From Pseudodesulfovibrio mercurii (GTDB taxonomy: Bacteria; Desulfobacterota; Desulfovibrionia; Desulfovibrionales; Desulfovibrionaceae), in assembly GCF_000189295.2 (NCBI RefSeq), contig NC_016803.1:2010001-2042000 (forward strand): DNA of 32,000 nt, read 5' to 3'. The position numbers and the translations under genes were made by a program. Every line of letters begins with the position of its first letter. The stretch's first letter is position 1. The notes beneath the pieces are model-generated. The model did not search any database, was not told the origin of the DNA, and worked only from the letters and a program-made list of their open reading frames with translations. Of the stretch, positions 7,207 to 18,167 are shown in pieces.

Positions 7207-7393
7207 TGATTTTTTGCCATCAGCAAAACGGGACAAGGCTGTCCCTCCGACGTGCGCCCGGCGGTAGGGGCCCGGTCCCGGAAAGCGGTTCCGGGGCGTG
7301 CCGCAGGGCGATTCCGGGACGGTGGCGAGGGGGATTGCCGGGGCGGTTCGGGCGAGGCCCGACGGCGGCCCCGGGGCGCGTCGCGGGACGCGA

Positions 7394-8818
7394 TCAGACG
7401 GTCAGGGAGCCGACGAGCAGGACCGTGCCGAGCAGGCAGATGGCGGCGGCCCCGCACAGGGACAGTCCGGCGTGAAGGACGTTGAACAGGCGGCGGTTGC
7501 GGCCGGACAGGGTCAGGGCGGCCTTGCGGGCCGAGACCGCGAACCAGGCGAACAGGGTGGTGGTCAGCCCCATGCCCAGGGCCATGACCACCAGGGCGGC
7601 CAGGCCGGTCCAGAGGATGTTCAGGCCGATGGCGAAGGCCAGGATGACGGCCGCGCCCGGACAGGGGATCAGCCCGGTGACGAAGGACACGGCCAGGATG
7701 GAGCGCAGGTTTTCGCCCTCGGGTTCGGCGCGGGCGCAGGCGTCGGCCGCGAGGAGCCCGCCCCGGCGCAGGTCGAACACGGCCTTGACCAGGAGGAACA
7801 GCCCCATGAGGGCGAGGAGCCCGTACCCGGCGGGCTGGATGGCCCGGCTGGCGGCCGCGAACCCGCCCATGCCCGTGGAGAACACGAGATAGGCCGCGCC
7901 CACGGCCAGCACGGCCGAGCCCATATGCACGAAGGTGATGGCGTTGCCCATGAGCGCGCCGGTCATGAGCGATCCGGGGCGGCTCAGGAACCAGGAGCAG
8001 ACCACGGCCTTGCCGTGCCCCGGCCCCACGGCGTGGACCACCCCGTAGACGAAGGACAGCCCCAGGAACATCCACAGGGCCGGGCCCCACGGGTCGTCCG
8101 CAAGTTGGACTCCGAAGGCGTCGAGCCGCGCGGTCAGCGCCTTCTGGGCGGACCGGACCAAGCCCATAAACCGGGCGAGGAGGCCGGGCTCGTCCGTTTC
8201 CCCTTCCGCCACGGCGGGGGACGCGCCGGGGATCGCGCTCACGGACAGGTGCACGGCGTCGGGCACGATATAGCGCCAGTAGGTCTGGTCCCTGGCCGGG
8301 CGCATGGCGTGGCTGACCGCGATGCCGCCCTGGACGTCGAAGCGCACGCCGTTCTCGGCGTAGATCATGTCCGTATAATAGTCCCTGTCGAACACGGCCA
8401 TGCGGAAGTCGGCCAGCCGGTCCACGGGCAGGTCGAGGGGCACGTCGAAGTCGTAGACGAAGCGGTTGCCCTTCAGCCCGGCCCGGAAGTGCTCCACCCG
8501 GACCGGCAGCCGCTCGCCCCCGGCCTCGACCAGGGTGAAATAGTGGTAGTTGGACAGGTACTGGAAGGCCCCGTCGCGCACGGCCGCCTGGCCCTGGGGC
8601 GTGGCCAGGGAGGCCGCGTCCAGGCCCAGGTCGCTCAGGATGGCCCGGGTGAACATCTCGTCGAAGAGCCAGCTCTGGTGCACGCCCGACAGCCCGGCGT
8701 CGTCCAGGCGGAAGGTCAGGGACACGTCCACGTAGACGTGCGGGTGGGCTTCGGCCCGGTCCGGGGCCAGGGCCGGACAACACAGGCTCGCCAGGAGAAG
8801 GATGATGATCGTGCGCAT
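7394..8818 (-). CDS. Fusion protein: periplasmic DUF1007-like domain + NicO/RcnA-like nickel/cobalt transporter permease
   Basis: I take the start at the internal ATG (comp. 8816-8818), giving the signal peptide MRTIIILLLASLCCPALA. AHPHVYVDVSLTF opens a DUF1007-type domain of about 240 aa. A multi-TM domain follows, with the HAVGPGHGK and PCPGA motifs typical of COG2215 NicO-type transporters. There is one uninterrupted frame. Confidence 0.8.
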   Translation of the reverse strand: MRTIIILLLASLCCPALAPDRAEAHPHVYVDVSLTFRLDDAGLSGVHQSWLFDEMFTRAILSDLGLDAASLATPQGQAAVRDGAFQYLSNYHYFTLVEAGGERLPVRVEHFRAGLKGNRFVYDFDVPLDLPVDRLADFRMAVFDRDYYTDMIYAENGVRFDVQGGIAVSHAMRPARDQTYWRYIVPDAVHLSVSAIPGASPAVAEGETDEPGLLARFMGLVRSAQKALTARLDAFGVQLADDPWGPALWMFLGLSFVYGVVHAVGPGHGKAVVCSWFLSRPGSLMTGALMGNAITFVHMGSAVLAVGAAYLVFSTGMGGFAAASRAIQPAGYGLLALMGLFLLVKAVFDLRRGGLLAADACARAEPEGENLRSILAVSFVTGLIPCPGAAVILAFAIGLNILWTGLAALVVMALGMGLTTTLFAWFAVSARKAALTLSGRNRRLFNVLHAGLSLCGAAAICLLGTVLLVGSLTV

Positions 8819-9772: not shown

Positions 9773-11704
9773 ATGCGAGCAGACAACCCCAAGAGAAAAC
9801 GGCCTCTCCTGACCAGCAGGTCCATCTCGCGGGACCTGACCTTCAGCCTGGTGGTCATCGTCATGATCATCGCCACGGCCCTCGGCGGGTTCATCTACTG
9901 GCAGCAGTCCCAGGAGATGTGGGCCACGGCCGAGAAAAAGGGCGAGGACACCATCTCCTCGGTGGCCGAAATCCTGGCCGTGCCCATCTGGAACCTGGAC
10001 TACGACAACGCCCGGCTCATCGGCTCGGTCTACACCCACGACGACATGGTCCAGGGCATCCGCATCTACGGCTCGCGCAACGAGGTGGTCTTCGCCCACG
10101 AGAAGTTCTCGGGCACGCCCGCGGACTTCAGCCAGGTCCGGCCCATCGTCTTCGAGGGCCGCACCATCGGCCGGGCCGAGATCGACTTCACCCTGGAGCG
10201 CGAGAAGAAGCGCCTGGACGAACAGATGTTCGTCTCGATCATCATCATCGTGGTCTCCATCTCCGTCATCCTGGCCATCACCGGCCTGCTCCTGCGCGTC
10301 TTCCTGAACAAGCCGCTCATGGTCCTCCAGTCCGGCATCGCCCGCGTGGCCAAAGGCGACTTCTCCTACGACTTCGGCGAGGTCTACCACGCGGAACTGC
10401 TGGAGATCGCCAAGCGATTCCGGCGCATGTCCATCGAGATCGAGGGCCGCGAGAACAAGCTCCAGACCATGAACAAGACCCTCCAGGAAGCGGAGGAGAA
10501 ATACCGGTCCATCTTCGAGAACGCCATCGAGGGCATCTTCCAGGCCACCCCGGACGGCGTGCTTCGCCGGGCCAACCCGGCCATGGCCCGCATCTTCGGC
10601 TACGACTCCCTGGACGAGTTCCTGTCCAACGTCCGCTCCCTGAGCTCCCGGATCATGGTCAACCCGGACCACATGCAAGGGTTCTTCGACCGCGTGCGCG
10701 ACCAGGGCGAGGTCAAGCGGTTCGAGGCCGAGTACTACCGCCGCGACGGCAAGACCATCTGGGGCTCCCTCAACGCCCGGGCCATCCACGACGAGCGGGG
10801 CAACTTCGTGTTCGTGGACGGCATCCTCGAGGACATCACCGACCGCAAGAAGGCCGAGCAGGACCTGGCCGACCTGAACCGCCACCTGGAACAGTTGGTC
10901 CGCGAGCGCACCGAGGACCTGGTCAACAAGGCCCGCGAGCTGGAGGAGGCCAACCAGCGGCTGCGCGAACTGGACGAGATGAAGTCCGCCTTCCTCTCCT
11001 CGGTCTCCCACGAGCTGCGCACACCCCTGACCTCCATCCTGGGCTTCGCCAAACTCCTGAACAAGGAGTTCACGCGCAACTTCCTGCCCCTGGTCAGCCC
11101 GGAAGGCGCCCTGGCGCGCAAGGGCAAGCGCATCCGCGAGAACCTGGCCATCATCAGCCACGAGGGCGAACGGTTGACCCGGCTGATCAACGACGTCCTC
11201 GACCTGAACAAGATCGAGTCCGGCTCCATGGGCTGGCGCGACGAGGAGCTGGACATGAACGAGGTCATCGAGGTGGCCGCCAGTTCGGTCTCGGGCATGT
11301 TCGCCCAGACCACCCTGGAGCTGCGCACCGAGATCCAGCCGGGCCTGCCGCACATTGTGGCCGACCGCGACCGCATGCAGCAGGTGCTCATCAACCTGCT
11401 CAACAACGCCTCCAAGTTCACGGAAAAGGGCTCGGTCACCCTGCGCGCCTTCCCGCGCTTCAGCCAGCTGCGCGTGGAGGTGGTGGACACCGGCACCGGC
11501 ATCCACCCCGAGGACCAGTCCCAGATCTTCGAGAAGTTCCACCAGACCCACACCGACGACACCATGGTCAACAAGCCCAAGGGCACCGGCCTGGGCCTGA
11601 CCATCTGCCGCGAGATCATCGAGCACTACGGCGGCCGCATCTGGGTCGAGTCCGAAGTCGGCGTAGGCTCCACCTTCATATTTACTTTGCCTGCGATGCA
11701 ATAA
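9773..11704 (+). CDS. Sensor histidine kinase (2 TM, HAMP, PAS/PAC, HisKA, HATPase_c)
   Basis: I take the start at ATG 9773. There are two TM segments. The HAMP is LNKPLMVLQSGIARVAKGDF, the PAS is YRSIFENAIEGIFQATPDG.., the H-box is FLSSVSHELRTPLTSI, and the N/G boxes are LINLLNNASKFT and GTGLGLTICREIIEHYGGRIWVES. Confidence 0.92.
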   Translation: MRADNPKRKRPLLTSRSISRDLTFSLVVIVMIIATALGGFIYWQQSQEMWATAEKKGEDTISSVAEILAVPIWNLDYDNARLIGSVYTHDDMVQGIRIYGSRNEVVFAHEKFSGTPADFSQVRPIVFEGRTIGRAEIDFTLEREKKRLDEQMFVSIIIIVVSISVILAITGLLLRVFLNKPLMVLQSGIARVAKGDFSYDFGEVYHAELLEIAKRFRRMSIEIEGRENKLQTMNKTLQEAEEKYRSIFENAIEGIFQATPDGVLRRANPAMARIFGYDSLDEFLSNVRSLSSRIMVNPDHMQGFFDRVRDQGEVKRFEAEYYRRDGKTIWGSLNARAIHDERGNFVFVDGILEDITDRKKAEQDLADLNRHLEQLVRERTEDLVNKARELEEANQRLRELDEMKSAFLSSVSHELRTPLTSILGFAKLLNKEFTRNFLPLVSPEGALARKGKRIRENLAIISHEGERLTRLINDVLDLNKIESGSMGWRDEELDMNEVIEVAASSVSGMFAQTTLELRTEIQPGLPHIVADRDRMQQVLINLLNNASKFTEKGSVTLRAFPRFSQLRVEVVDTGTGIHPEDQSQIFEKFHQTHTDDTMVNKPKGTGLGLTICREIIEHYGGRIWVESEVGVGSTFIFTLPAMQ

Positions 11705-11731
11705 GCGGCTTCCGATAGCGGCGCATCTGCA

Positions 11732-11799
11732 CATTTTTTCCGGCCGGGCCAATCCTCACGTAGACGGCTACGCTGCGGTTGGCCCGACCGGAAAAAATG
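11732..11799. repeat. Long imperfect hairpin / inverted repeat downstream of the kinase gene
   Basis: 11732-11752 (cattttttccggccgggccaa) pairs with 11779-11799 (ttggcccgaccggaaaaaatg), 21 bp with one mismatch. The 26-nt loop contains a 5-bp sub-stem (cgtag/ctacg). Confidence 0.8.
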
Positions 11800-11977
11800 C
11801 ACAGCTACACCACTCTCGACAAATCCGCAGGACAGCGGATTTGGACGTTGCGGTCTTTCCGCAACGCCCCGAAGGGGTGAGCCCCAGGACGGGGCGAATC
11901 AAAGCCTAGTGCGCGCACGGGAGAGAGAGCCGCTGTCGGGTGCTGCGCACCCGAATCGCTCCAAAGAGGTAAGACAG

Positions 11978-12015
11978 GGCCTTCGACTCTATGTTGAGTC
12001 GGAGGCCTTTTTGTT
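11978..12015 (+). terminator. Strong rho-independent terminator with no obvious upstream gene
   Basis: GGCCTTCGACTC-tatgtt-GAGTCGGAGGCC forms a 12 bp stem with one G.U pair, followed by TTTTTGTT. The nearest upstream plus-strand CDS ends 270 nt earlier. Confidence 0.7.
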
Positions 12016-12219
12016 GGGGGTGCCCACCCCGCGAAGCTGCGACAAAAAGCTTGAAGGGGGTCCAGGGGGCATCCCCGCATCCTGTCAAGTTGCTTTTTTA
12101 TGCTTATCGGGCGCTTTTGGGCGTCATTCTTCAACAAAACAGGGTGTTGGCGAAAACCGGGGGTATGCTGGTTCGGATTCCCGGGGATGGGCCTCGGGGA
12201 CGAAGCCAGAGAGGTTGCC

Positions 12220-13590
12220 ATGGCAGCACCGTATATGTGTGAGACGAGGCGCGGCCCGGACGGGCGCATTGTGGAGAAAACCGAGACCGTCAGGGGGCGG
12301 AAGTCCGTCTGGGCCTACGCCTATGACGGGGACGGACGGCTGACCGAGGCCAAACTGGACGGGCGGGTCATCTGCCAGTGCTGGTACGACCGGGAGGGCC
12401 GCCGGGTGCGGGACTATCTGCCCGCCACGGCCGGGGCGAATTATCGGGATTACCAGTATACTCAGGACAACCGGCTGATGCGCGCCGGGTCCGGGCAGTA
12501 TTCCCACGACGAGCGCGGCTTCCGGTCCATCTGGTCGGACAGGGGCGTGTACACCCTGTACGAGTACAGCCCGGACTACCGGCTGCTCAAGGCCGAGGAG
12601 GAGGGCCGGAACAAGGCCTTGACCTTTGACCACGACGATGACGGGCGGCGCTCGGCCAAGTACCTGAACGGGCAGTTGGTCGAGGCCTACCGGTGGCTCG
12701 ACTTCGTGCGTCTGGCCGCGTTCCACGACGGGCGGCACGGTTACGAGTTCGCCTACCGCGAGGGCGAGCGCACGCCCTACGCCATGCGCCGGGACGACGG
12801 GACCGTGGCCGGGCTCTTATATGACCAGGTCGGCTCCCTGCGCGTGGTTGCCGACGTGGACGGAAACGTGATAAAGGAGGTCCTGTACGATCCCTTCGGC
12901 GGGATCATCGAGGACACCAACCCGAGCCTGCGCCTGCCCATCGGCTTCGCGGGCGGCCTCCACGACCGGGACCTGGGGTTCGTCCGCTTCGGCTGGCGCG
13001 ACTATGACGTCAGGACCGGCCGCTGGACCGCGCCCGACCCCATCGGGGACAAGGGCGGCGACCCGGACTGGTACGGGTATTGTCTGGACGACCCGGTGAA
13101 CATGCATGACCCCATGGGGTTGTTTGCTTGGATCCCGCTGGCAGGAGCCGCGATTGGTGCAGGCTCCAATGCCTATGACAATTGGGATGATTGGAGAAGC
13201 GGCAAGATGAGCACAGGCGACTATGCCACATCCGTTGGCCTGGGAGCTGTAACCGGCGCAGTGAGCACCATGGGCGGGGGTATAGGTTCAACCCTTCTGC
13301 TTGGTGGCGGCTCTGCCGCCTTGAACGAAGTTGGGAACCAGTACATCAGGACAGGCAAAGTCGATGATGTTGGGAAAGTTGCTGCAGCTGCTGGGAGCGG
13401 AGTAATCGGAGGGGCTGCCGGGAAGATCGGCAAGAGCGTCGGAAAGAACTTCGGCAGGATTACACCTTCCATGACGATCCCCCCCAAACCCCTCAAGGAT
13501 GCGAGCAATCTTGGAAGTGTTGTGAGTTCAACTGTCGGCACGGAGATGACTGACGACTGGCTCAACAAGGCTTTGGACAAGCAAAAATAA
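12220..13590 (+). CDS. Short Rhs/YD-repeat protein: YD repeats + RHS core tip (DPxGL) + glycine-zipper C-terminal (toxin-like) domain
   Basis: I take the start at ATG 12220, with GAGAGG 5 nt upstream. YD repeats are YAYDGDGRLTEA, WYDREGRRV, YQYTQDNRLMRA and FDHDDDGRRSAK. The core tip is GFAGGLHDRDLGFVRFGWRDYDVRTGRWTAPDPIGDKGGDPDWYGYCLDDPVNMHDPMGL and ends at 13122. The tail 13123-13587 is rich in GxxxG (GAAIGAG, GLGAVTGAVSTMGGGIGSTLLLGGG, GSGVIGGAAGKIG). Confidence 0.85.
   Translation: MAAPYMCETRRGPDGRIVEKTETVRGRKSVWAYAYDGDGRLTEAKLDGRVICQCWYDREGRRVRDYLPATAGANYRDYQYTQDNRLMRAGSGQYSHDERGFRSIWSDRGVYTLYEYSPDYRLLKAEEEGRNKALTFDHDDDGRRSAKYLNGQLVEAYRWLDFVRLAAFHDGRHGYEFAYREGERTPYAMRRDDGTVAGLLYDQVGSLRVVADVDGNVIKEVLYDPFGGIIEDTNPSLRLPIGFAGGLHDRDLGFVRFGWRDYDVRTGRWTAPDPIGDKGGDPDWYGYCLDDPVNMHDPMGLFAWIPLAGAAIGAGSNAYDNWDDWRSGKMSTGDYATSVGLGAVTGAVSTMGGGIGSTLLLGGGSAALNEVGNQYIRTGKVDDVGKVAAAAGSGVIGGAAGKIGKSVGKNFGRITPSMTIPPKPLKDASNLGSVVSSTVGTEMTDDWLNKALDKQK
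12912..13101 (+). repeat. Core-tip direct repeat, copy 1 (inside the main Rhs gene)
   Basis: 190 bp, roughly 96 percent identical by eye to 13902-14091. Its distal 162 bp match 14771-14932. Confidence 0.9.
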
Positions 13591-13598
13591 GGAAAGTG

Positions 13599-13826
13599 AT
13601 GTTAGGCATTGTCTTCATGTTTGTTGCAGGTGCAGTATGCATCATTGGCGGGTTATTTTTGATCCGAGAATGGTACTATACCCGGCATACAGACCTTCGC
13701 CCATTTTCATGGAAACGTTGGTTCAACAGAGATGAAGGGCTGAACCCCCTTGAAAAGCTTGTCAACGGAATAATAGGTATAATCATTGGTGCATTTGCGA
13801 CGTTGATCTTCCTGTCTTCCTTGTAG
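13599..13826 (+). CDS. Small 2-TM membrane protein, putative immunity protein for the preceding C-terminal domain
   Basis: 75 aa (ATG 13599; a GTG lies at 13596), starting 9 nt after the Rhs stop. TM1 is GIVFMFVAGAVCIIGGLFLI and TM2 is LVNGIIGIIIGAFATLIFLSSL. G+C is markedly lower than the surroundings. The function is inferred from position only. Confidence 0.55.
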   Translation: MLGIVFMFVAGAVCIIGGLFLIREWYYTRHTDLRPFSWKRWFNRDEGLNPLEKLVNGIIGIIIGAFATLIFLSSL

Positions 13827-13836
13827 ACTCACCGAT

Positions 13837-13874
13837 ACGCCCGAGGAAAAAGCCTCGGGCGTGTTTGATTTGTT
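13837..13874 (+). terminator. Rho-independent terminator closing cassette 1
   Basis: ACGCCCGAGG-aaaaag-CCTCGGGCGT followed by GTTTGATTTGTT. Confidence 0.7.
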
Positions 13875-14520
13875 GTGGCGAGTGTCGGGCGGAATTTTAG
13901 CGGACACCAACCCGAGCCTGCGCCTGCCCCTCGGCTTTGCGGGCGGCCTGCACGACCGGGACCTGGGCTTCGTCCGCTTCGGCTGGCGCGACTATGACGT
14001 CAGGACCGGCCGCTGGACCGCGCCCGACCCTATCGGCGACAAGGGCGGCGACCCGGACTGGTACGGGTATTGTCTGGACGACCCGGTGAACGGGGTTGAT
14101 CCGGCGGGGTTGGAAGGCGGGTTTTGGGATGGGGTCAAGAAAATCGGAGCGGGCTTCGGCAAGCTGTGGGACAAGGCCCCGGCCGGTATCGGTGAGGCCG
14201 TTACCAAGGGCGTGAAGGGGGCTGGCAAGGCATTGAGCAAAACGGCGGACGCCTTTGCCACCAACAAGGATTTGCAAAAATATACGGCGATCGCCTTAGG
14301 TGCGGGGGCTCTCCCCATCGTGGCGGCGACAGGCTCGGCAGTGGTGCCGGCGGCCATCGGAGCCGCCATGCAGCACCCGGACACGCTCGCAACCATGTCA
14401 AAAGCGACTGTCGATTTTGCGAATGGATACTTCGACGAAGGCCCGCCGCCGCCTTCCTGGCCCGGCTATCTCGGAGGGCTACTCGGAAAAGCGAAAGATA
14501 TCCACAAGAAAAAGAAGTGA
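13861..14520 (+). CDS. Orphan Rhs core-tip fragment fused to alternative C-terminal domain (CT2); probably not independently translated
   Basis: The frame reads ..DTNPSLRLPLGFAGGLHDRDLGFVRFGWRDYDVRTGRWTAPDPIGDKGGDPDWYGYCLDDPVNGVDPAGL, then a 135-aa Gly/Ala/Lys-rich tail (14113-14517) with the hydrophobic stretch YTAIALGAGALPIVAATGSAVVPAAIGAAM. The only start is GTG 13861, which lies inside the T-tract of the preceding terminator and has no RBS. Confidence 0.7.
   Translation: MFDLLWRVSGGILADTNPSLRLPLGFAGGLHDRDLGFVRFGWRDYDVRTGRWTAPDPIGDKGGDPDWYGYCLDDPVNGVDPAGLEGGFWDGVKKIGAGFGKLWDKAPAGIGEAVTKGVKGAGKALSKTADAFATNKDLQKYTAIALGAGALPIVAATGSAVVPAAIGAAMQHPDTLATMSKATVDFANGYFDEGPPPPSWPGYLGGLLGKAKDIHKKKK
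13902..14091 (+). repeat. Core-tip direct repeat, copy 2
   Basis: It aligns base for base with 12912-13101 at an offset of 990, with about 7 mismatches. Confidence 0.9.
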
Positions 14521-14522
14521 TT

Positions 14523-14720
14523 ATGAGAGTAAAACCGGTGGAAATGGTGCTGAGTGCCGCGATGATAGTAACAAGCCTGCTGAGCATAACGAATGATTAT
14601 TCCTACTTTAAGGGATTTCCCGTATACTCCTGGGTTGAATACATTATTCTGGGGGGAGGTGTGTTGATCCCCGTCCTGGCTTGGTTCCTCCGGTCACCAA
14701 CTCGGAATAAACAAAAATAA
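14523..14720 (+). CDS. Small 2-TM membrane protein, putative immunity protein for CT2
   Basis: 65 aa from ATG 14523, 2 nt after the CT2 stop (the track uses GTG 14517). It reads MRVKPVEMVLSAAMIVTSLLSI...WVEYIILGGGVLIPVLAWFLRSP. It is a paralogue of the ORF at 15352-15555, sharing the MRVK start and the P.LAW(F/Y)LR.P motif. Confidence 0.55.
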   Translation: MRVKPVEMVLSAAMIVTSLLSITNDYSYFKGFPVYSWVEYIILGGGVLIPVLAWFLRSPTRNKQK

Positions 14721-14726
14721 CGGTAG

Positions 14727-14764
14727 GAAACGCCCTGGGAACCATATTTCCAGGGCGTTTCTTC
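14727..14764 (+). terminator. Stem-loop / weak terminator closing cassette 2
   Basis: GAAACGCCCTGG-gaaccatattt-CCAGGGCGTTTC forms a 12 bp stem followed by TTC. The T-tract is only partial. Confidence 0.5.
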
Positions 14765-14770
14765 ACCCCT

Positions 14771-14932
14771 ATCGGCTTCGCGGGCGGCCTGCACGACCGG
14801 GACCTGGGCTTCGTCCGCTTCGGCTGGCGGGATTACGACGTCAGGACCGGCAAATGGTCCGCGCCGGACCCCATCGGGGACAAGGGCGGCGACCCGGACT
14901 GGTACGGGTATTGTCTGGACGACCCGGTGAAC
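14771..14932 (+). repeat. Core-tip direct repeat, copy 3 (5'-shortened)
   Basis: 162 bp matching 12940-13101 and 13930-14091. Similarity to cassette 2 continues to 15222 (cassette 2 coordinate 14381). Confidence 0.9.
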
Positions 14933-15355
14933 GGGGTTGATCCGGCGGGGTTGGAAGGCGGATTTTGGGATGGCGTGAAGAAAATCGAAGCGGGCTTCGG
15001 CAAGCTGTGGGACAAGGCCCCGGCCGGTATCGGTGAGGCCGTTACCAAGGGCGTGAAGGGGGCTGGCAAGGCATTGAGCAAAACGGCGGACGCCTTTGCC
15101 ACCAACAAGGATTTGCAAAAATATACGGCGATCGCCTTAGGTGCGGGGGCTCTCCCCATCGTGGCGGCGACAGGCTCGGCAGTGGTGCCGGCGGCCATCG
15201 GAGCCGCCATGCAGCATCCGGAAAGATTGGCTGTCGCGTCCAAGGCGGCAACTGATTTTGCAACCGGAGCGTTCGACCCAGGGCCTCCGCCGATGACCAA
15301 GGCGGGTATAGCCGGATACGCCGTGAACAAGGCCTATGAGTGGAGTAAACAATGA
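14771..15355 (+). CDS. Second orphan Rhs core-tip fragment fused to CT3 (chimeric relative of CT2); no start codon upstream of the homology
   Basis: The frame is open from 14711 with no ATG or GTG before IGFAGGLHDRDLGFVRFGWRDYDVRTGKWSAPDPIGDKGGDPDWYGYCLDDPVNGVDPAGL. The tail is 14954-15352. The track's start at 14927 is the Val codon of DPVNG. Confidence 0.7.
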   Translation: MGFAGGLHDRDLGFVRFGWRDYDVRTGKWSAPDPIGDKGGDPDWYGYCLDDPVNGVDPAGLEGGFWDGVKKIEAGFGKLWDKAPAGIGEAVTKGVKGAGKALSKTADAFATNKDLQKYTAIALGAGALPIVAATGSAVVPAAIGAAMQHPERLAVASKAATDFATGAFDPGPPPMTKAGIAGYAVNKAYEWSKQ

Positions 15356-15555
15356 GAGTGAAATTGTCTGAAATTCTGTTGGGGGAATTGCTTGTCGGAG
15401 TCGGTGCGTTGGAAATAGGCGCAGGCAAGGCTGGTGTATATGGCTACCCCCAACCCTTGTGGACGGCCTATCTCCTTGTCGCCATCGGCGTCGCACTCCC
15501 TTTGGTTGCTTGGTATTTGCGGCGGCCGCAGAAAGATGAGGACCAGACGGTTTAA
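15352..15555 (+). CDS. Small 2-TM membrane protein, putative immunity protein for CT3
   Basis: 67 aa. Its ATG overlaps the CT3 stop (ATGA). It reads MRVKLSEILLGELLVGVGALEIGAG...LWTAYLLVAIGVALPLVAWYLRRP. Confidence 0.55.
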   Translation: MRVKLSEILLGELLVGVGALEIGAGKAGVYGYPQPLWTAYLLVAIGVALPLVAWYLRRPQKDEDQTV

Positions 15556-15637
15556 CTGTTGGGCCACCCATTTGCCAAGGAATGGCCAGGTATTACCCGG
15601 CGGCAGAACGACGGCCCGGTCCAGGCTCGCCGCCCCG

Positions 15638-15677
15638 AAAAAACAACGCCCCCGTCCCGATGATTCGGGGCGGGGGC
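15638..15677 (-). terminator. Rho-independent terminator of rng
   Basis: The minus strand reads GCCCCCGCCCCG-aatcat-CGGGACGGGGGC followed by GTTGTTTTTTC, 25 nt after the rng stop. Confidence 0.7.
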
Positions 15678-15700
15678 ATTCGTTGCTTGTCCGGGGACGG

Positions 15701-17167
15701 CTACTCGTCGTATTCGTACTCGATGTCGATGTGGATGGTCTTTTCGTAGCGCTTTTCCAGGTCCGCGAGGATGCCGCGCTTGTTGTTCAGCAGGTAGATG
15801 GCCAGTTCCTCCTCGCAGTCGTACTGGACCTCGTCGGAGCCGGGCTTGCGCAGGTCGCGGTGGATGTCCTTGAGGGCCTGGAGGGCCTGCCATTCCATGT
15901 TCCGGCGGATGCCCGTGCCCTTGCAGCAGGGGCAGGGCTCGGTGGAGATGGCGATGGCCGAGGAGCCCAGCCGCTGGCGGACCAGCTCCATGAGCCCGAA
16001 GGAGGAGATGCGCGAGACGTCGGTCCGGGCGCGGTCGTTCTTCATTTCCGCGCGCATGACCTTCTCCACCTCGCGGCAGTCCTTGGGGTTCTTCATCTCG
16101 ATGAAGTCGATGACCACCTGGCCGCCGATGTCGCGCAGCCGCAGCTGGCGGGCGATCTCGCGGGCGGCCTCCACGTTGGTCTTGAGCGCCATCTTCTGGA
16201 AATTCTTCTCGCCGCCGATCTTGCCGGAGTTGATGTCCACGGCGGTCAGGGCCTCGGTGGCGTCGAAGACCAGCCGCCCGCCCGAGGGCATGGACGCCTC
16301 GCGGGAGTAGATCTCCTCCACCTGCTTGACCAGGTTGAACCGCTCCAGCAGGGACAGCTCGTTGTCCTCGTGCAGCCGGACCAGGTTGTTCTTGCGCGGG
16401 AAGGCCAGCTTGACGAACTGGTGGACCTGCTCATAGGTCTCCTTGTCGTCCACCCAGATCTCGGTGATGTCCAGGGTCAGGTAGTCGCGCACGGCCCGGG
16501 CGGCCAGGCCGAGCTCCTGGTAGACCGGCGCCGGGGCCTTGACCTTCTGGGCGTTGGCCCGGATGTCGGTCCACAGCCGGTTCAGGTACTTGAAGTCGCG
16601 CTCCAGGGCGGCCTTGGACTGGCCCACGGCCGCGGTGCGGGCGATGAGCCCCACGCCCTCGGCGGTCTCGAACCCCTCCAGGGCGGTCTTGAGGCGATCC
16701 CGCTCCTTCTCGTCCTCGATCTTGCGCGAGACCCCGATCTGGCTGCGGCCCACGGTGTAGACGAAGCAGCGGCCGGGCAGGGAGAGGTAGGAGGTCAGGA
16801 ACGCGCCCTTCTTGCCTGTGGGTTCCTTGACCACCTGGACCAGGACCTCCTGGCCGGGCTTGAGCACCTTCTGCATGAGCGGGAAGCGCTGGCCCTTCTT
16901 GGTGGGCACCTCGTTGATGTAGTATTCGGGGTGGACCTCGTCGATCTGCAGAAAGCCGTTGCGCTCGGCCCCGTAGTTGATGAACGCGGCCTGCAACCCG
17001 TTGTCGATGTTGTGGATGTAGCCCTTGTAGATGTTGCCCTTGGTCTTGGCCTGGTGGACCATCTCAACGTAATACTCGTTGACCTTGCCCTCCTCGGCGA
17101 TGACGACCTCGACCTGTTCTCCCGGCAGCACGGAGATGAACATCTTCTGCCGTTTCTTCTTGGTCAT
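15701..17167 (-). CDS. rng: Ribonuclease G (RNase E/G family)
   Basis: I take the start at the internal ATG (comp. 17165-17167), giving MTKKKRQKMFISVLPGEQVEVVIAEEG... The S1 domain is GNIYKGYIHNIDNGLQAAFINYGAERNGFL and the catalytic region is ..AVDINSGK...IGGQVVIDFIEM... At 488 aa it fits Rng rather than Rne. Confidence 0.9.
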   Translation of the reverse strand: MTKKKRQKMFISVLPGEQVEVVIAEEGKVNEYYVEMVHQAKTKGNIYKGYIHNIDNGLQAAFINYGAERNGFLQIDEVHPEYYINEVPTKKGQRFPLMQKVLKPGQEVLVQVVKEPTGKKGAFLTSYLSLPGRCFVYTVGRSQIGVSRKIEDEKERDRLKTALEGFETAEGVGLIARTAAVGQSKAALERDFKYLNRLWTDIRANAQKVKAPAPVYQELGLAARAVRDYLTLDITEIWVDDKETYEQVHQFVKLAFPRKNNLVRLHEDNELSLLERFNLVKQVEEIYSREASMPSGGRLVFDATEALTAVDINSGKIGGEKNFQKMALKTNVEAAREIARQLRLRDIGGQVVIDFIEMKNPKDCREVEKVMRAEMKNDRARTDVSRISSFGLMELVRQRLGSSAIAISTEPCPCCKGTGIRRNMEWQALQALKDIHRDLRKPGSDEVQYDCEEELAIYLLNNKRGILADLEKRYEKTIHIDIEYEYDE

Positions 17168-17213
17168 GGAAACCTCTTGACGAGAAATGTGTGCGTCTGA
17201 TCCCGGCGCGCCC

Positions 17214-18167
17214 TCAGTCTTCGATGACATGGCCCGTTCCGTGGTAAAATGTCTCCCCCCGGTCATCCCGGCGGGTCACTTCGCCCATTTTTTCGAGGGC
17301 TTCCACGGCCTGGCGAACCCTCTCGAGGTCCGCGCCCAGGGCCTGGGCCAGCTGTTCGGCGGTCTGGGGCCTGCGGCTCAGGGAGGCGGTCACGGCAGCG
17401 GTCATCCGCTCCAGGCTCATCTCCTTGCCCGCATGGGCCCGCCGCCCGTCCGGGCGGGTCTCCCCGCCTCCGAGCGCCAGGCGCCAACGGCTTAAAACCT
17501 CCCCGTCCACGGGGCGGACCCCCTTGACCGTGCCGGGACGGGTCAGCGTGACCACGTCCACCCGGTCGGGGGCAAGCCGTTGGCAGAAAATCCGTAGCCT
17601 GCCGAGGTTCTCGTCGGAATCGTTAATTCCTTCGGCAAGCAAAATTTCCAAAAATATCTTTCCCTTGAATTCATTCCTGAAGGCAAGGAGCCCGTCGGCC
17701 ACGGCCTCGGGCGTGATGGCCTCGTCCGGCCGGTTCACCCTGGTGAATTCCTCGGGCACCAGGGAGTCCATGCTGGGCAGGACCACGTCGGCGGCGCACA
17801 GTTCGCGCCGCACCTCGGGGTCGGTCATCAGGCTGGCGTTGGTCAGCACGGCCACGGGGATCCCCGGAAAGAGCGCCTTGGCCCCGAGGATGATCCGCTC
17901 CATGTCCGCGTTCAGGCACGGTTCGCCCAGGCCGCCGAGGGTGATCATGTCCGGCGGCTCCAGCCCTTCCTCCTTCCACTGGGACAGTTCCCGGAGGATG
18001 TCGGCCGCCGGAACGTAGACCCTGCGCTCGCAGGTCCGGTTCCTGGTGGCGCCCACCTCGCAGTAGACGCAGTCCATGGAACAGATGCGGTCGCCGAGCA
18101 GGTCGAGTCCGAGGGAGCGGCCGAGCCGCCCGCTCATGACCGGGCCGAAGACGTATTTGTATGCCAT
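17214..18167 (-). CDS. Radical SAM protein with C-terminal winged-helix-like domain
   Basis: The start is taken at MAYKYVFGPVMSGRLGRSLG. CSMDCVYC is the CX3CX2C cluster motif. The tail is ..TAEQLAQALGADLERVRQAVEALEKMGEV. The longer track start at 18260 is possible but has no better signal. Confidence 0.8.
   Translation of the reverse strand: MAYKYVFGPVMSGRLGRSLGLDLLGDRICSMDCVYCEVGATRNRTCERRVYVPAADILRELSQWKEEGLEPPDMITLGGLGEPCLNADMERIILGAKALFPGIPVAVLTNASLMTDPEVRRELCAADVVLPSMDSLVPEEFTRVNRPDEAITPEAVADGLLAFRNEFKGKIFLEILLAEGINDSDENLGRLRIFCQRLAPDRVDVVTLTRPGTVKGVRPVDGEVLSRWRLALGGGETRPDGRRAHAGKEMSLERMTAAVTASLSRRPQTAEQLAQALGADLERVRQAVEALEKMGEVTRRDDRGETFYHGTGHVIED

Follow-up and report, generated by a model that had tools for sequence, protein, structure and literature searches.

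[quoted passage not shown] In known orphan rhs-CT/rhsI and cdiA-CT/cdiI arrays, the end of the core with its DPxGL motif is kept and the delivery part is missing. In the rhs-CT/rhsI arrays, a small immunity ORF comes next, the modules lie in tandem behind a main gene encoding a ~1400-aa Rhs protein, and the common core is a recombination substrate that can load an orphan onto the main gene. Homology between these orphans is found only upstream of the demarcating motif, and their C-terminal regions (CTs) are mutually unrelated (Poole et al. 2011, PMC3150448). [quoted passage not shown] 2020, PMC7043789).

How membrane-inserting toxins are neutralized by small membrane immunity proteins, such as Tsi5 and the ionophore-family CdiI, is poorly understood. 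To our knowledge, the same holds for the neutralization mode of Tsi4 and of the colicin immunity proteins. The colicin pore domain is a ~200-aa ten-helix globule with amphipathic helices around a hydrophobic helical pair; its uptake proceeds through Tol or Ton, and its immunity proteins are integral membrane proteins with 3–4 transmembrane segments that recognize particular pore-domain helices within the membrane. Glycine-zipper membrane-depolarizing toxins of the Tse4, Ssp6, TelE and EsxX type carry repeated GxxxG in a hydrophobic region. According to passages of the report on CDI ionophore toxins (CT-EC93 family), these toxins are helical and act in the membrane, with polymorphism clustering in those helices that are expected to touch the immunity protein; the CdiI proteins are small hairpins of two helices, very hydrophobic and with both ends in the cytoplasm, share only ~30% identity within a group and protect in a cognate-specific manner (Halvorsen et al. 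2024, PMC11630599). Passages on Tse5-CT of Pseudomonas aeruginosa describe a ~150-aa Rhs C-terminal fragment with no predicted enzymatic function, which contains predicted transmembrane and amphipathic helices and depolarizes cells, and assign two predicted transmembrane regions to Tsi5 (PMC9637101, PMC10684867).

Here, we analyzed a 32,000-nt stretch of the Pseudodesulfovibrio mercurii genome (the window; NC_016803.1, positions 2,010,001–2,042,000 of the forward strand). Two neighboring cassettes in it form a mosaic that arose by recombination and that recurs in relatives, where toxin tail and immunity protein co-vary. These cassettes are probably paralogous orphan modules with a recently homogenized 5' part and an ancient tail and immunity gene, encoding a predicted membrane toxin and a two-transmembrane (2-TM) immunity protein with specificity set by the tail.

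Results

Organization of the locus

The locus consists of a gene for a 456-aa "mini-Rhs" protein followed by two orphan Rhs-CT/immunity cassettes (DND132_1823 and DND132_1824), with the following features (positions in the window).

12220..13590, + strand: main mini-Rhs gene (P0075, 'YD repeat protein', 456 aa), with Pfam TEN_YD-shell and TIGR03696 Rhs_assc_core
13117–13590, + strand: CT1, putative Gly-rich toxin of the main gene, following the core end DPMGL and unrelated to CT2
13596..13826, + strand: I1, small protein after CT1, predicted 2-TM, unrelated to I2 and I3
13834..13865, + strand: terminator-like hairpin at the end of cassette 1 (fold –25.4 kcal/mol, z –4.6)
13902..14112, + strand: core tip of cassette 2, an Rhs core fragment ending DPAGL, 96.8% identical to the main gene over 190 bp
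14113..14520, + strand: CT2, putative toxin domain, 135 aa plus stop
14148..14375, + strand: identical tract, copy A, 228 bp, equal to 14989–15216 (BLASTN comparison)
14452..14517, + strand: T2 of CT2, hypervariable C-terminal segment, residues 114–135 after GPPP, the segment that tracks the immunity class
14523..14720, + strand: I2, immunity-type protein, 65 aa, predicted 2-TM, with its ATG 2 nt past the CT2 stop
14722..14767, + strand: strong hairpin at the end of cassette 2, with a conserved counterpart behind the L046 immunity gene (fold –31.2 kcal/mol, z –6.4)
14767..14953, + strand: core tip of cassette 3, ending DPAGL, 93.4% identical to the main gene over 166 bp
14954..15355, + strand: CT3, putative toxin domain, 133 aa plus stop (DND132_1824 / WP_148266973)
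14989..15216, + strand: identical tract, copy B, 228 bp, equal to 14148–14375
15293..15352, + strand: T2 of CT3, hypervariable C-terminal segment
15352..15555, + strand: I3, immunity-type protein WP_041915761, 67 aa, predicted 2-TM, with its ATG overlapping the CT3 stop (ATGA)

Cassettes 2 and 3 (C2 and C3) follow a common plan of core tip, ~135-aa putative helical toxin, 65–67-aa predicted 2-TM protein and closing hairpin. Both have the layout of orphan modules: a DPxGL core fragment without the N-terminal delivery part sits behind a main rhs gene, and next comes a small ORF, which begins at +2 nt from the toxin stop for I2 and with a –4 nt overlap for I3. The annotated ORF of DND132_1823 starts at GTG 13861; no canonical start codon is apparent in the orphan cassettes, and an internal (V/M)KKIG start is the gene start in the RefSeq re-annotation and in several homologues. 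A promoter scan of the orphan cassettes returned 1 site versus 1.3 expected by chance, hence no evident promoter, and an Rfam scan of 11600–15750 returned nothing above the gathering score.

The defining Rhs motif PxxxxDPxGL is present at the core end (DPVNMHDPMGL and DPVNGVDPAGL), and the TIGR03696 Rhs_assc_core profile matches the main gene, C2 and C3 with E values of 6e-18, 3e-16 and 8e-14, respectively. The main gene comprises ~300 aa of YD-shell and Rhs core, matches the Pfam TEN_YD-shell profile only at positions 624–866 of 909, and at 456 aa falls short of the full YD-repeat shell (~1000 aa or more) that encloses a toxin. Its N-terminus is conserved across genera, and the best 120 of 709 mini-Rhs homologues are all 267–502 aa long. 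The 496-aa ORF was considered as a truncated Rhs and rejected, given that its true start lies at 12220 and that the N-terminus is conserved in hundreds of ~450-aa homologues. An AF2 model of the mini-Rhs was of low confidence (pLDDT 48). Among the large ORFs of the window, many lack any Pfam match, no PAAR, VgrG or T6SS Pfam family was detected, and those with a match are housekeeping genes (alanine dehydrogenase, RNase E/G, radical SAM and NrfD).

A recently homogenized block ends inside the toxin domain

BLASTN aligned 13931–14381 with 14772–15222 at an offset of 841 bp (451 bp, 96.45% identity, 16 mismatches, 0 gaps). The similarity that an earlier note on this DNA had drawn from 13930/14771 to 14381/15222 therefore ends where it was placed and begins one position later, since 13930 is mismatched. 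The mismatches lie at 15 positions within 13938–14147 and at 14376, and exact alignment confirms that the longest run without a mismatch is the 228-bp block 14148–14375 = 14989–15216 singled out in that note, as well as its translations and the core-tip differences R to K (codon 14011) and T to S (codon 14017). A run of at least 228 bp is not expected if 16 mismatches are placed randomly in 451 sites (permutation, P = 1.2e-4). From 14382 on, nucleotide identity is ~40–60%.

Between cassettes 2 and 3, dS amounts to 0.20 for the core tip and 0.048 for the toxin N-part, falls to 0 within the identical block (0 synonymous differences in 76 codons) and reaches ~1.9 in the tail, and the immunity genes are saturated. 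The step from 0 in the block to ~1.9 in the tail and saturation in the immunity genes marks a recombination breakpoint between recently homogenized and anciently diverged DNA, in agreement with the recent gene conversion of the effector part that had been proposed. The outgroup cassette of a related strain (L046/L047) differs from the sequence common to C2 and C3 at 8/228 block sites, so the homogenization is younger than that strain split. L046 is ~95.5% identical to C3 in the tail and immunity body, and its last ~12 immunity codons and hairpin are C2-like. In addition, the core tips of the main gene, C2 and C3 form a three-way patchwork.

A predicted membrane-active toxin domain and its small partner

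CT2 and CT3 are members of one family over their full length (81% identity overall). Their last 47 residues, described before as unrelated, align without gaps at 23/47 identical residues (49%, E 4e-14) and share the family-wide motifs DF.xG.FDPGPPP and then G..G; judged by this alignment, the two tails are anciently diverged homologues, with dS ~1.9 and dN/dS ~0.3. Saturated dS and a dN/dS of ~0.3 led us to reject rapid positive selection on a recent duplicate as the source of the divergence between the tails.

CT2 is composed of amphipathic Lys/Gly-rich helices (residues 1–50), a hydrophobic Ala/Gly segment (57–84) and a helix–GPPP–helix tail (87–135). The amphipathic character of the N-part (muH 0.47–0.60 over residues 1–44) and the 28-residue hydrophobic segment had both been recognized earlier. 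In CT2 and CT3 this segment contains only small-xxx-small motifs (ATGSAVVPAAIGA) and no GxxxGxxxG, and thus no glycine zipper; CT1 of the main gene contains many GxxxG motifs. Modeled with AF2 from an alignment of 28 sequences, CT2 comes out as all-helical with an overall pLDDT of 57, the tail hairpin being the most confident part of the model (pLDDT 70–82). From its hydropathy and amphipathicity, the CT2/CT3 domain looks membrane-active, which would be compatible with dissipation of the membrane potential.

Searches of Pfam, NCBIfam and PDB sequences assigned no family to the toxin part or the small ORFs. None of 28 family members matched Pfam, including the colicin pore-forming domain, at E ≤ 0.1, and a PDB sequence search with the CT2-family profile at E ≤ 10 returned only three unrelated chains from a set that presumably includes the deposited Tse5 chains. 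Against 1.84e9 representatives, the same profile returned 44 proteins, none longer than 504 aa and therefore none a CdiA. The domain is unannotated, confined to Desulfovibrionaceae and restricted to short ORFs, none of them above 555 aa; in L047, an intact mini-Rhs of 444 aa (P0200) ends in a CT3-type toxin.

I2 and I3 have two predicted transmembrane segments each and share 20/65 residues (31%, E 2e-13), including MRVK and P.LAW(F/Y)LR.P, in line with their earlier description as paralogues. In six-frame HMM scans of related loci, a member of this small-ORF family begins 0–27 nt past the toxin stop in 34/34 unique toxin/immunity pairs, and tandem copies of the small ORF without a toxin are common. 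A homologue search with the immunity proteins gave 4 clusters only, as their short length and high divergence defeat the word index. Hydropathy, an all-helical but low-confidence AF2 model, the toxin-less small-ORF arrays and analogy suggest that the toxin inserts into the membrane and that the small proteins are immunity proteins that neutralize it there.

The mosaic recurs in relatives and the toxin C-terminus co-varies with the immunity protein

The same mosaic is present in three other contigs (L002, L014 and L006), whose tandem pairs have a nucleotide identity of 0.87–1.00 in the N-part, versus identities of 0.32–0.49 in T2 and 25–44% in the immunity proteins. The 3' boundary of the variable island lies inside the immunity gene, near AW(F/Y)LR, and in L002 the island spans only ~240 bp between flanks of at least 95% identity over most of both sides. 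Across these loci, the N-part groups by genome, and T2 and the immunity protein group by class. The N-part of L014:803 is identical to that of its own neighbor (1.00) and 0.88 identical to that of L004:5218, with which T2 and the immunity protein are 100% identical.

Co-variation was analyzed in 34 unique toxin/immunity pairs out of 45 related loci. The Mantel correlation (r) of immunity distance with toxin distance is 0.19 for the N-part, 0.21 for H2 (residues 70–86), 0.30 for T1 and 0.65 for T2. The partial Mantel r is 0.62 for T2 once the remaining toxin regions are controlled for (p 0.0005, from phylogenetically non-independent metagenomic pairs and a test known as liberal) and 0.12 for those regions once T2 is controlled for; the first 27 residues of the tail contribute little signal of their own (0.09). 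T2 clusters agree with immunity classes at an ARI of 0.84 (null maximum 0.38), and no pair combines T2 identity of at least 0.6 with immunity identity below 0.5. The co-variation of tail and small ORF proposed earlier is thus borne out across homologues, but the ~45 aa to which it was assigned are too wide, as the immunity class appears to track mainly the last ~20 toxin residues after GPPP. This signal is confounded by physical linkage: if crossovers are confined to the conserved sequence upstream, T2 is co-inherited with the immunity gene whatever their function, and their co-variation could arise from adjacency alone.

Discussion

The P. mercurii cassettes resemble known orphan arrays in the retained DPxGL core end, the missing delivery part, the adjoining small ORF, the tandem position behind a main gene and a common core open to recombination. 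They differ in that homology runs ~270 bp beyond DPxGL into the toxin, CT2 and CT3 belong to the same toxin family, the variable unit is a sub-domain island of toxin tail and immunity body, and the main gene encodes a ~450-aa mini-Rhs. Unlike in Salmonella, exact homology here connects two orphans, inside the toxin domain. As in pore-forming colicins, amphipathic helices and a hydrophobic segment are combined with a predicted membrane immunity partner; unlike colicins, which are taken up through Tol or Ton, the domain has no Pfam colicin match, its partners are predicted 2-TM proteins and it is carried on Rhs. CDI ionophore/CdiI and Tse5-CT/Tsi5 pairs are the closest analogues, with toxicity, protection and depolarization predicted here from sequence. 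By comparison with the CDI ionophores, the profile search detected no sequence relationship to CT-EC93, the scaffold is Rhs instead of CdiA, and variation is concentrated in one C-terminal segment; a mosaic with perfect-identity flanks is absent from the passages of PMC11630599. Tse5 is a full-length, T6SS-delivered Rhs, unlike the mini-Rhs, and the passages on it in PMC9637101 and PMC10684867 contain neither tail-restricted polymorphism nor an orphan mosaic.

Purifying selection alone, acting without recombination, might be thought to keep the effector part identical, as the N-part is the most conserved protein region of the toxin family. It was rejected and is effectively refuted by synonymous sites, since the block has no synonymous change next to a core tip at 0.20 and a tail at ~1.9, and the orthologous block of L046 carries its 8 substitutions and the N-part reaches only 73–92% nucleotide identity between genomes. 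That the orphan cassettes are decaying, non-functional remnants, or their identity an assembly artefact, so that the mosaic has no biological meaning, is improbable: the missing clear promoter and canonical start codon and the restriction of the toxin domain to short ORFs would fit, but neither toxin frame and neither immunity ORF is disrupted, immunity starts are coupled to toxin stops, tail dN/dS is ~0.3, a CT3-type module sits on the intact main mini-Rhs of L047, and the mosaic recurs in independent assemblies, the source record itself being a single 3.86-Mb contig. A possible, though not the favored, history is a recent tandem duplication of the cassette, after which the tail and immunity gene of one copy were replaced, with foreign DNA or another, third and diverged copy of the same genome as the donor. 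A third P. mercurii family member elsewhere (WP_148266967; P0012), compared at the protein level, is the same as CT3 along 63 residues, and its divergence sets in at another point, tail and immunity body act as a unit with breakpoints on both sides in L046/L047, and G+C is lower in the variable island (0.49–0.51) than in its flanks (0.63–0.69). However, substitutions private to C2 number ~7 in the 218 bp that precede the block (13930–14147) and 0 in the 228-bp block itself, which fits a conversion tract over an older copy better than a single recent 5' duplication; replacement and conversion predict the same present structure and are not mutually exclusive.

It is unlikely that T2 and the small ORF co-vary solely through adjacency downstream of the only stretch that permits crossovers, with specificity residing in another part such as the hydrophobic segment, whose second half is variable, or with broad cross-protection. 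All breakpoints seen do fall either on the 5' side of T2, in conserved sequence, or close to the 3' end of the immunity gene, H2 is likewise variable (mean p-distance 0.48), some immunity proteins are 75–82% identical despite T2 tails only 19–38% identical, and passages of PMC11630599 record partial cross-protection in some CDI ionophore immunity pairs. Yet CT2 equals CT3 through H2 and their immunity proteins are only 31% identical, so that, on the premise that every toxin requires its own immunity protein, the discriminating residues would lie after position 88. Furthermore, the common part of the tandem toxins of L014 and L006 reaches ~GPPP and their immunity classes differ nonetheless, and T2 similarity predicts immunity similarity without exception. 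The evidence points to the last ~20–45 toxin residues as the part recognized by the antidote.

The sequences themselves show the mosaic, its origin by recombination, its recurrence and the co-variation; in the favored reading, recently homogenized paralogous modules with an ancient tail and immunity gene, we further infer that the domain is toxic and acts on the membrane, that the small protein confers immunity, and where specificity lies. Recent intragenomic recombination (gene conversion or double crossover) has probably homogenized the 5' ~450 bp, that is, the core tip and the first two-thirds of the toxin, with the 228-bp perfect tract stopping where usable homology stops and ancient divergence retained in the last ~45 toxin codons and the immunity gene. 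Concerted evolution within each genome acts on the core tip and toxin N-part, and in some genomes also on the immunity 3' end and the intercassette hairpin. A ~240–300-bp island, comprising the last ~20–25 toxin codons and the first ~50 immunity codons, persists as distinct classes common to several genomes. The toxin may enter the cytoplasmic membrane of the target through its amphipathic helices and Ala/Gly-rich hydrophobic segment and dissipate the membrane potential, and the cognate 2-TM protein may neutralize it inside the membrane, with the toxin C-terminal helix after the GPPP turn as the main recognition element, together with the immunity protein's TM1 and loop. Through the repeats, an orphan module could also be fused to the mini-Rhs gene by deletion. 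A further-reaching proposal, which we regard as doubtful, is that the island is a dedicated, switchable specificity cassette on a mini-Rhs, the C-terminal toxin helix and TM1/loop carrying the whole recognition code of a new membrane-toxin family. Its flanks would be kept identical by gene conversion, so that intragenomic recombination could re-assort or switch specificity, as with pilin or shufflon cassettes, and a ~450-aa scaffold too short for a closed Rhs cocoon would imply a different mode of toxin delivery.

Should the functional inferences fail, an ordinary orphan-array rearrangement remains. The locus adds an unannotated Desulfovibrionaceae toxin domain, a large family of ~450-aa mini-Rhs proteins, and concerted evolution that continues inside a toxin domain instead of ending at the DPxGL boundary. 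The cassettes are natural chimeras, in which CT2 and CT3 do not differ until after residue 87 of ~135 and their partners are only 31% identical, and the relatives narrow the toxin difference to ~20 residues past the GPPP turn. One relative's immunity gene is itself a natural chimera of an I3 body and an I2 C-terminus, which together with CT2, CT3 and the relatives makes a compact set for mapping specificity.

Organization of the mini-Rhs gene and its orphan cassettes

In this window of Pseudodesulfovibrio mercurii, the gene preceding cassettes 2 and 3 (C2 and C3) encodes an Rhs-type protein, as its ORF matches Pfam TEN_YD-shell and TIGR03696 Rhs_assc_core.

12220–13590, plus strand: main gene, mini-Rhs protein of 456 aa (P0075), with its true start at 12220
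13117–13826: Gly-rich C-terminal domain of the main gene with many GxxxG motifs (CT1), then a 76-aa predicted two-transmembrane protein (I1)
15640–15690: strong GC-rich hairpin between I3, the small protein gene of C3, and the convergent RNase E/G gene (15701–17266, minus strand)

The N-terminus of the main protein (MxxPYxCxxRRGPDGRI...) is conserved across genera, and the best 120 of its 709 homologues at E <= 1e-10 are all 267–502 aa long and mostly from Pseudodesulfovibrio or Desulfovibrio, several genomes holding more than one. The start at 12220, the conserved N-terminus and the similarly short homologues identify the main gene as a genuine mini-Rhs polymorphic-toxin scaffold; the conserved N-terminus and the size of the best homologues rule out a truncated Rhs gene. 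Across the 709 matches, the mini-Rhs family (~370–500 aa) combines this N-terminus with just ~300 aa of YD shell and diverse C-terminal domains, and its members look too short for a closed Rhs cocoon. No delivery partner for the ~450-aa mini-Rhs is visible among the Pfam matches of the large ORFs in the window. CT1 and I1, which show no relation to the toxin domains (CT2 and CT3) and small immunity-type proteins (I2 and I3) of the cassettes, are probably a second membrane-targeting toxin/immunity pair.

C2 and C3 each open with a core tip, an Rhs core fragment with DPAGL at its end and 96.8% (C2) or 93.4% (C3) identity to the main gene. A ~135-aa toxin domain (CT2, DND132_1823; CT3, DND132_1824/WP_148266973) comes next, then a 65–67-aa ORF with its start codon coupled to the stop codon of the toxin. 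Strong hairpins close C2 (-31.2 kcal/mol) and cassette 1 (-25.4 kcal/mol), and the hairpin at 15640–15690 is probably a terminator common to the I3 and RNase E/G genes. A core fragment, a toxin and a small ORF in this order form the classic orphan rhs-CT/rhsI module (PMC3150448), and by its sequence layout the locus would be classed as an orphan Rhs-CT/immunity array. Unlike such arrays, its homology extends ~270 bp beyond DPxGL into the toxin, its variable unit is a sub-domain island across the toxin/immunity gene junction, and its scaffold is a mini-Rhs of ~450 aa. In addition, toxin ORFs are annotated from an internal (V/M)KKIG codon at window position 14974 (GTG) and in the homologues P0009, P0010, P0012, P0018, P0032 and P0203; by analogy with Salmonella Rhs toxin-antitoxin modules, orphan toxins may possibly be translated internally.

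Recombination origin of cassettes 2 and 3

Exact alignment of the cassettes reproduced almost to the base the similarity reported in the earlier note: 13931–14381 matches 14772–15222 without gaps over 451 bp (offset 841 bp; 96.45% identity, 16 mismatches). The 228-bp block noted as perfectly identical is indeed mismatch-free, the longest such run being exactly 14148–14375 = 14989–15216. Fifteen mismatches lie within 13938–14147 and one at 14376, and identity drops sharply from 14382 on; a run of at least 228 has P = 1.2e-4 if 16 mismatches are placed randomly in 451 sites. The described core-tip differences are real (R to K at codon 14011, T to S at 14017), as is the diverged paralogy of I2 and I3 (31% identity over 65 residues, E 2e-13). 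By comparison, the tails, the last ~45 toxin residues, had been called unrelated and are not: those of CT2 and CT3 align ungapped with 23/47 identical residues (E 4e-14). The variable island of tail and immunity gene (14350–14800, 15250–15550) has a G+C content of 0.49–0.56, compared with 0.63–0.69 in the flanks and remaining window, a difference for which the codon content of transmembrane proteins would partly account.

Nei–Gojobori estimates for C2 versus C3 give dS of 0.20 in the core tip, 0.048 in the toxin N-part (0 within the 228-bp block) and about 1.9 in the tail (dN/dS about 0.3), and dS is saturated in the immunity genes. Purifying selection as the sole cause cannot erase synonymous differences and hence leave a block with dS of 0, and a young duplicate diverging rapidly under adaptation could not have reached dS saturation. 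With both alternatives excluded, the identity step is a junction between recently homogenised and anciently diverged DNA, and C2 and C3 are very probably a recombination mosaic. Of the proposal that recent gene conversion homogenised the effector part, the junction is thus borne out by dS, and conversion itself is favoured less firmly. C2 has ~7 substitutions of its own in the 218 bp preceding the block and none inside it; this sequence pattern favours a conversion tract over an older copy, which may have run in either direction, rather than one recent duplication. Furthermore, the three core tips form a three-way patchwork of common variants.

In a closely related strain (L046/L047), an intact mini-Rhs of 444 aa ends in a CT3-type module, which departs from C2 and C3 at 8 of 228 block positions where these two agree. 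It is ~95.5% identical to C3 over the tail and immunity body and resembles C2 in the ~12 final immunity codons and the hairpin after them, so that the tail and immunity body behave as a module that can be exchanged, with a breakpoint at either end. Its immunity gene (L046 690–890, L047 about 7335–7540) is a natural chimera of an I3-like body and an I2-like C-terminus (..AWMLRSPTRNKQK), followed by an I2-type hairpin, indicating that the last ~12 immunity residues probably play no part in specificity. WP_148266967 (P0012), encoded at another place in the P. mercurii genome, is a third member of the toxin family; at the protein level it matches CT3 perfectly over 63 residues, among them the Glu of KKIEAG that is specific to CT3. 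Unlike the CT2/CT3 breakpoint, its departure from CT3 falls where the hydrophobic segment enters its second half. This sequence suggests that concerted evolution may reach dispersed copies too.

Recurrence of the mosaic and toxin–immunity co-variation

Scanning 45 related loci in six frames with HMMs returned 61 toxin-domain and 74 immunity-family matches. In 34/34 unique toxin/immunity pairs an immunity-family member begins 0–27 nt past the toxin stop codon, and tandem immunity copies without a toxin are common. The same mosaic occurs in tandem cassettes of three other contigs (L002, L014 and L006), with N-part nucleotide identity of 0.87–1.00, identity of 0.32–0.49 in T2, the toxin part after GPPP, and immunity proteins 25–44% identical. 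The variable island of L002 measures just ~240 bp, with >=95% identity across most of both flanks. By N-part sequence the cassettes cluster according to their genome; by T2 and immunity sequence they fall into classes that span genomes.

Comparison of immunity distance with toxin-region distance over the 34 unique pairs, of which the metagenomic ones are not independent, gave Mantel r of 0.19 for the N-part (residues 1–69), 0.21 for H2 (70–86), 0.30 for T1 (87–113) and 0.65 for T2 (114 to the end). Partial Mantel r is 0.62 for T2 given the rest and 0.12 for the rest given T2. T2 clusters agree with immunity classes (ARI 0.84; null maximum 0.38), no pairs combine similar T2 with dissimilar immunity, and within the immunity protein TM1 is the best correlate of T2 (r 0.67). 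The co-variation of the C-terminal ~45 residues with the small ORF claimed in the earlier note therefore holds across the pairs, but maps to ~20 residues.

Linkage alone would yield much of this signal, since T2 adjoins the immunity gene and homologous crossovers are possible only upstream of both. The argument that is independent of linkage, and the strongest of this kind for tail specificity, is that CT2 and CT3 do not differ before residue 88 although their partners are only 31% identical: if each partner is needed against its own toxin, discrimination must sit in the tail. Together, these sequence relationships make it somewhat probable that immunity specificity is encoded in the toxin tail.

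Toxin domain and proposed mechanism

The amphipathic Lys/Gly-rich region and hydrophobic Ala/Gly-rich segment recognised earlier are both present, at toxin residues 1–50 (strongly amphipathic, muH 0.47–0.60) and 57–84 (with prolines inside), followed by the tail (87–135). AF2 models the domain as all-helical, with low confidence overall (pLDDT 57) and the best confidence in the helix–GPPP–helix hairpin of the tail (pLDDT 70–82). Both I2 and I3 are predicted to form a hairpin of two helices in the membrane, and their terminal charges suggest that both termini may be cytoplasmic.

By analogy with known systems, the toxin would most likely enter the cytoplasmic membrane and dissipate the membrane potential, although we give depolarisation itself about an even chance. 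Binding of the toxin by the two-helix partner would take place within the bilayer, recognition being mainly between the post-GPPP helix and TM1 plus the loop of the immunity protein. Deletions between the repeats could fuse an orphan module to the mini-Rhs, a type of event documented in Salmonella (PMC7043789), and the CT3-type module of L047 sits in the fused position. We liken the pairs, known here from sequence, to two described systems. According to PMC9637101, Tse5-CT is an Rhs CT of 149 aa with cell-depolarising activity, and its immunity protein Tsi5 has two predicted transmembrane regions. For CDI ionophores, PMC11630599 describes CdiI partners as 72–100-aa two-helix hairpins with ~30% identity within a group, protecting against the cognate toxin only, and toxin polymorphism at predicted contact helices. 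The concept of a polymorphic membrane toxin with two-helix immunity is thus already established for CDI, which limits the novelty of the mechanistic reading. The overall explanation, mosaic orphan toxin/immunity cassettes whose function is read from sequence, is likely. The finding is of value mainly as a small collection of natural chimeras with which to map the recognition of a membrane toxin by a membrane immunity protein, and the locus also draws attention to a toxin domain and a mini-Rhs family that are both unstudied.

The toxin part after DPAGL has no relative in Pfam, NCBIfam or PDB-sequence searches. Its family comprises 38 clusters at 90% identity, none above 228 aa, and 44 representatives among 1.84e9 proteins, none above 504 aa; all named members are from Desulfovibrionaceae. 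In the fetched loci, the domain ends a mini-Rhs of ~440–555 aa or stands as an orphan fragment. Distant relatives (P0042, P0046, P0055, P0056 and P0065) carry 100–200-aa low-complexity or charged N-termini without an Rhs core, and the toxin domain is therefore not confined to Rhs scaffolds. A Pseudodesulfovibrio sp. MAG (L002, 5693–10803) holds a long array of at least four toxin-family copies, each with its own immunity-family gene, and three more toxin-less immunity genes in tandem; its immunity 3' ends are homogenised across different classes. Two immunity-family domains lie inside one 196-aa stop-to-stop frame in L022 (1680–2267), L023, L025 and L030, which points either to fusion of tandem immunity proteins or to loss of a stop codon.
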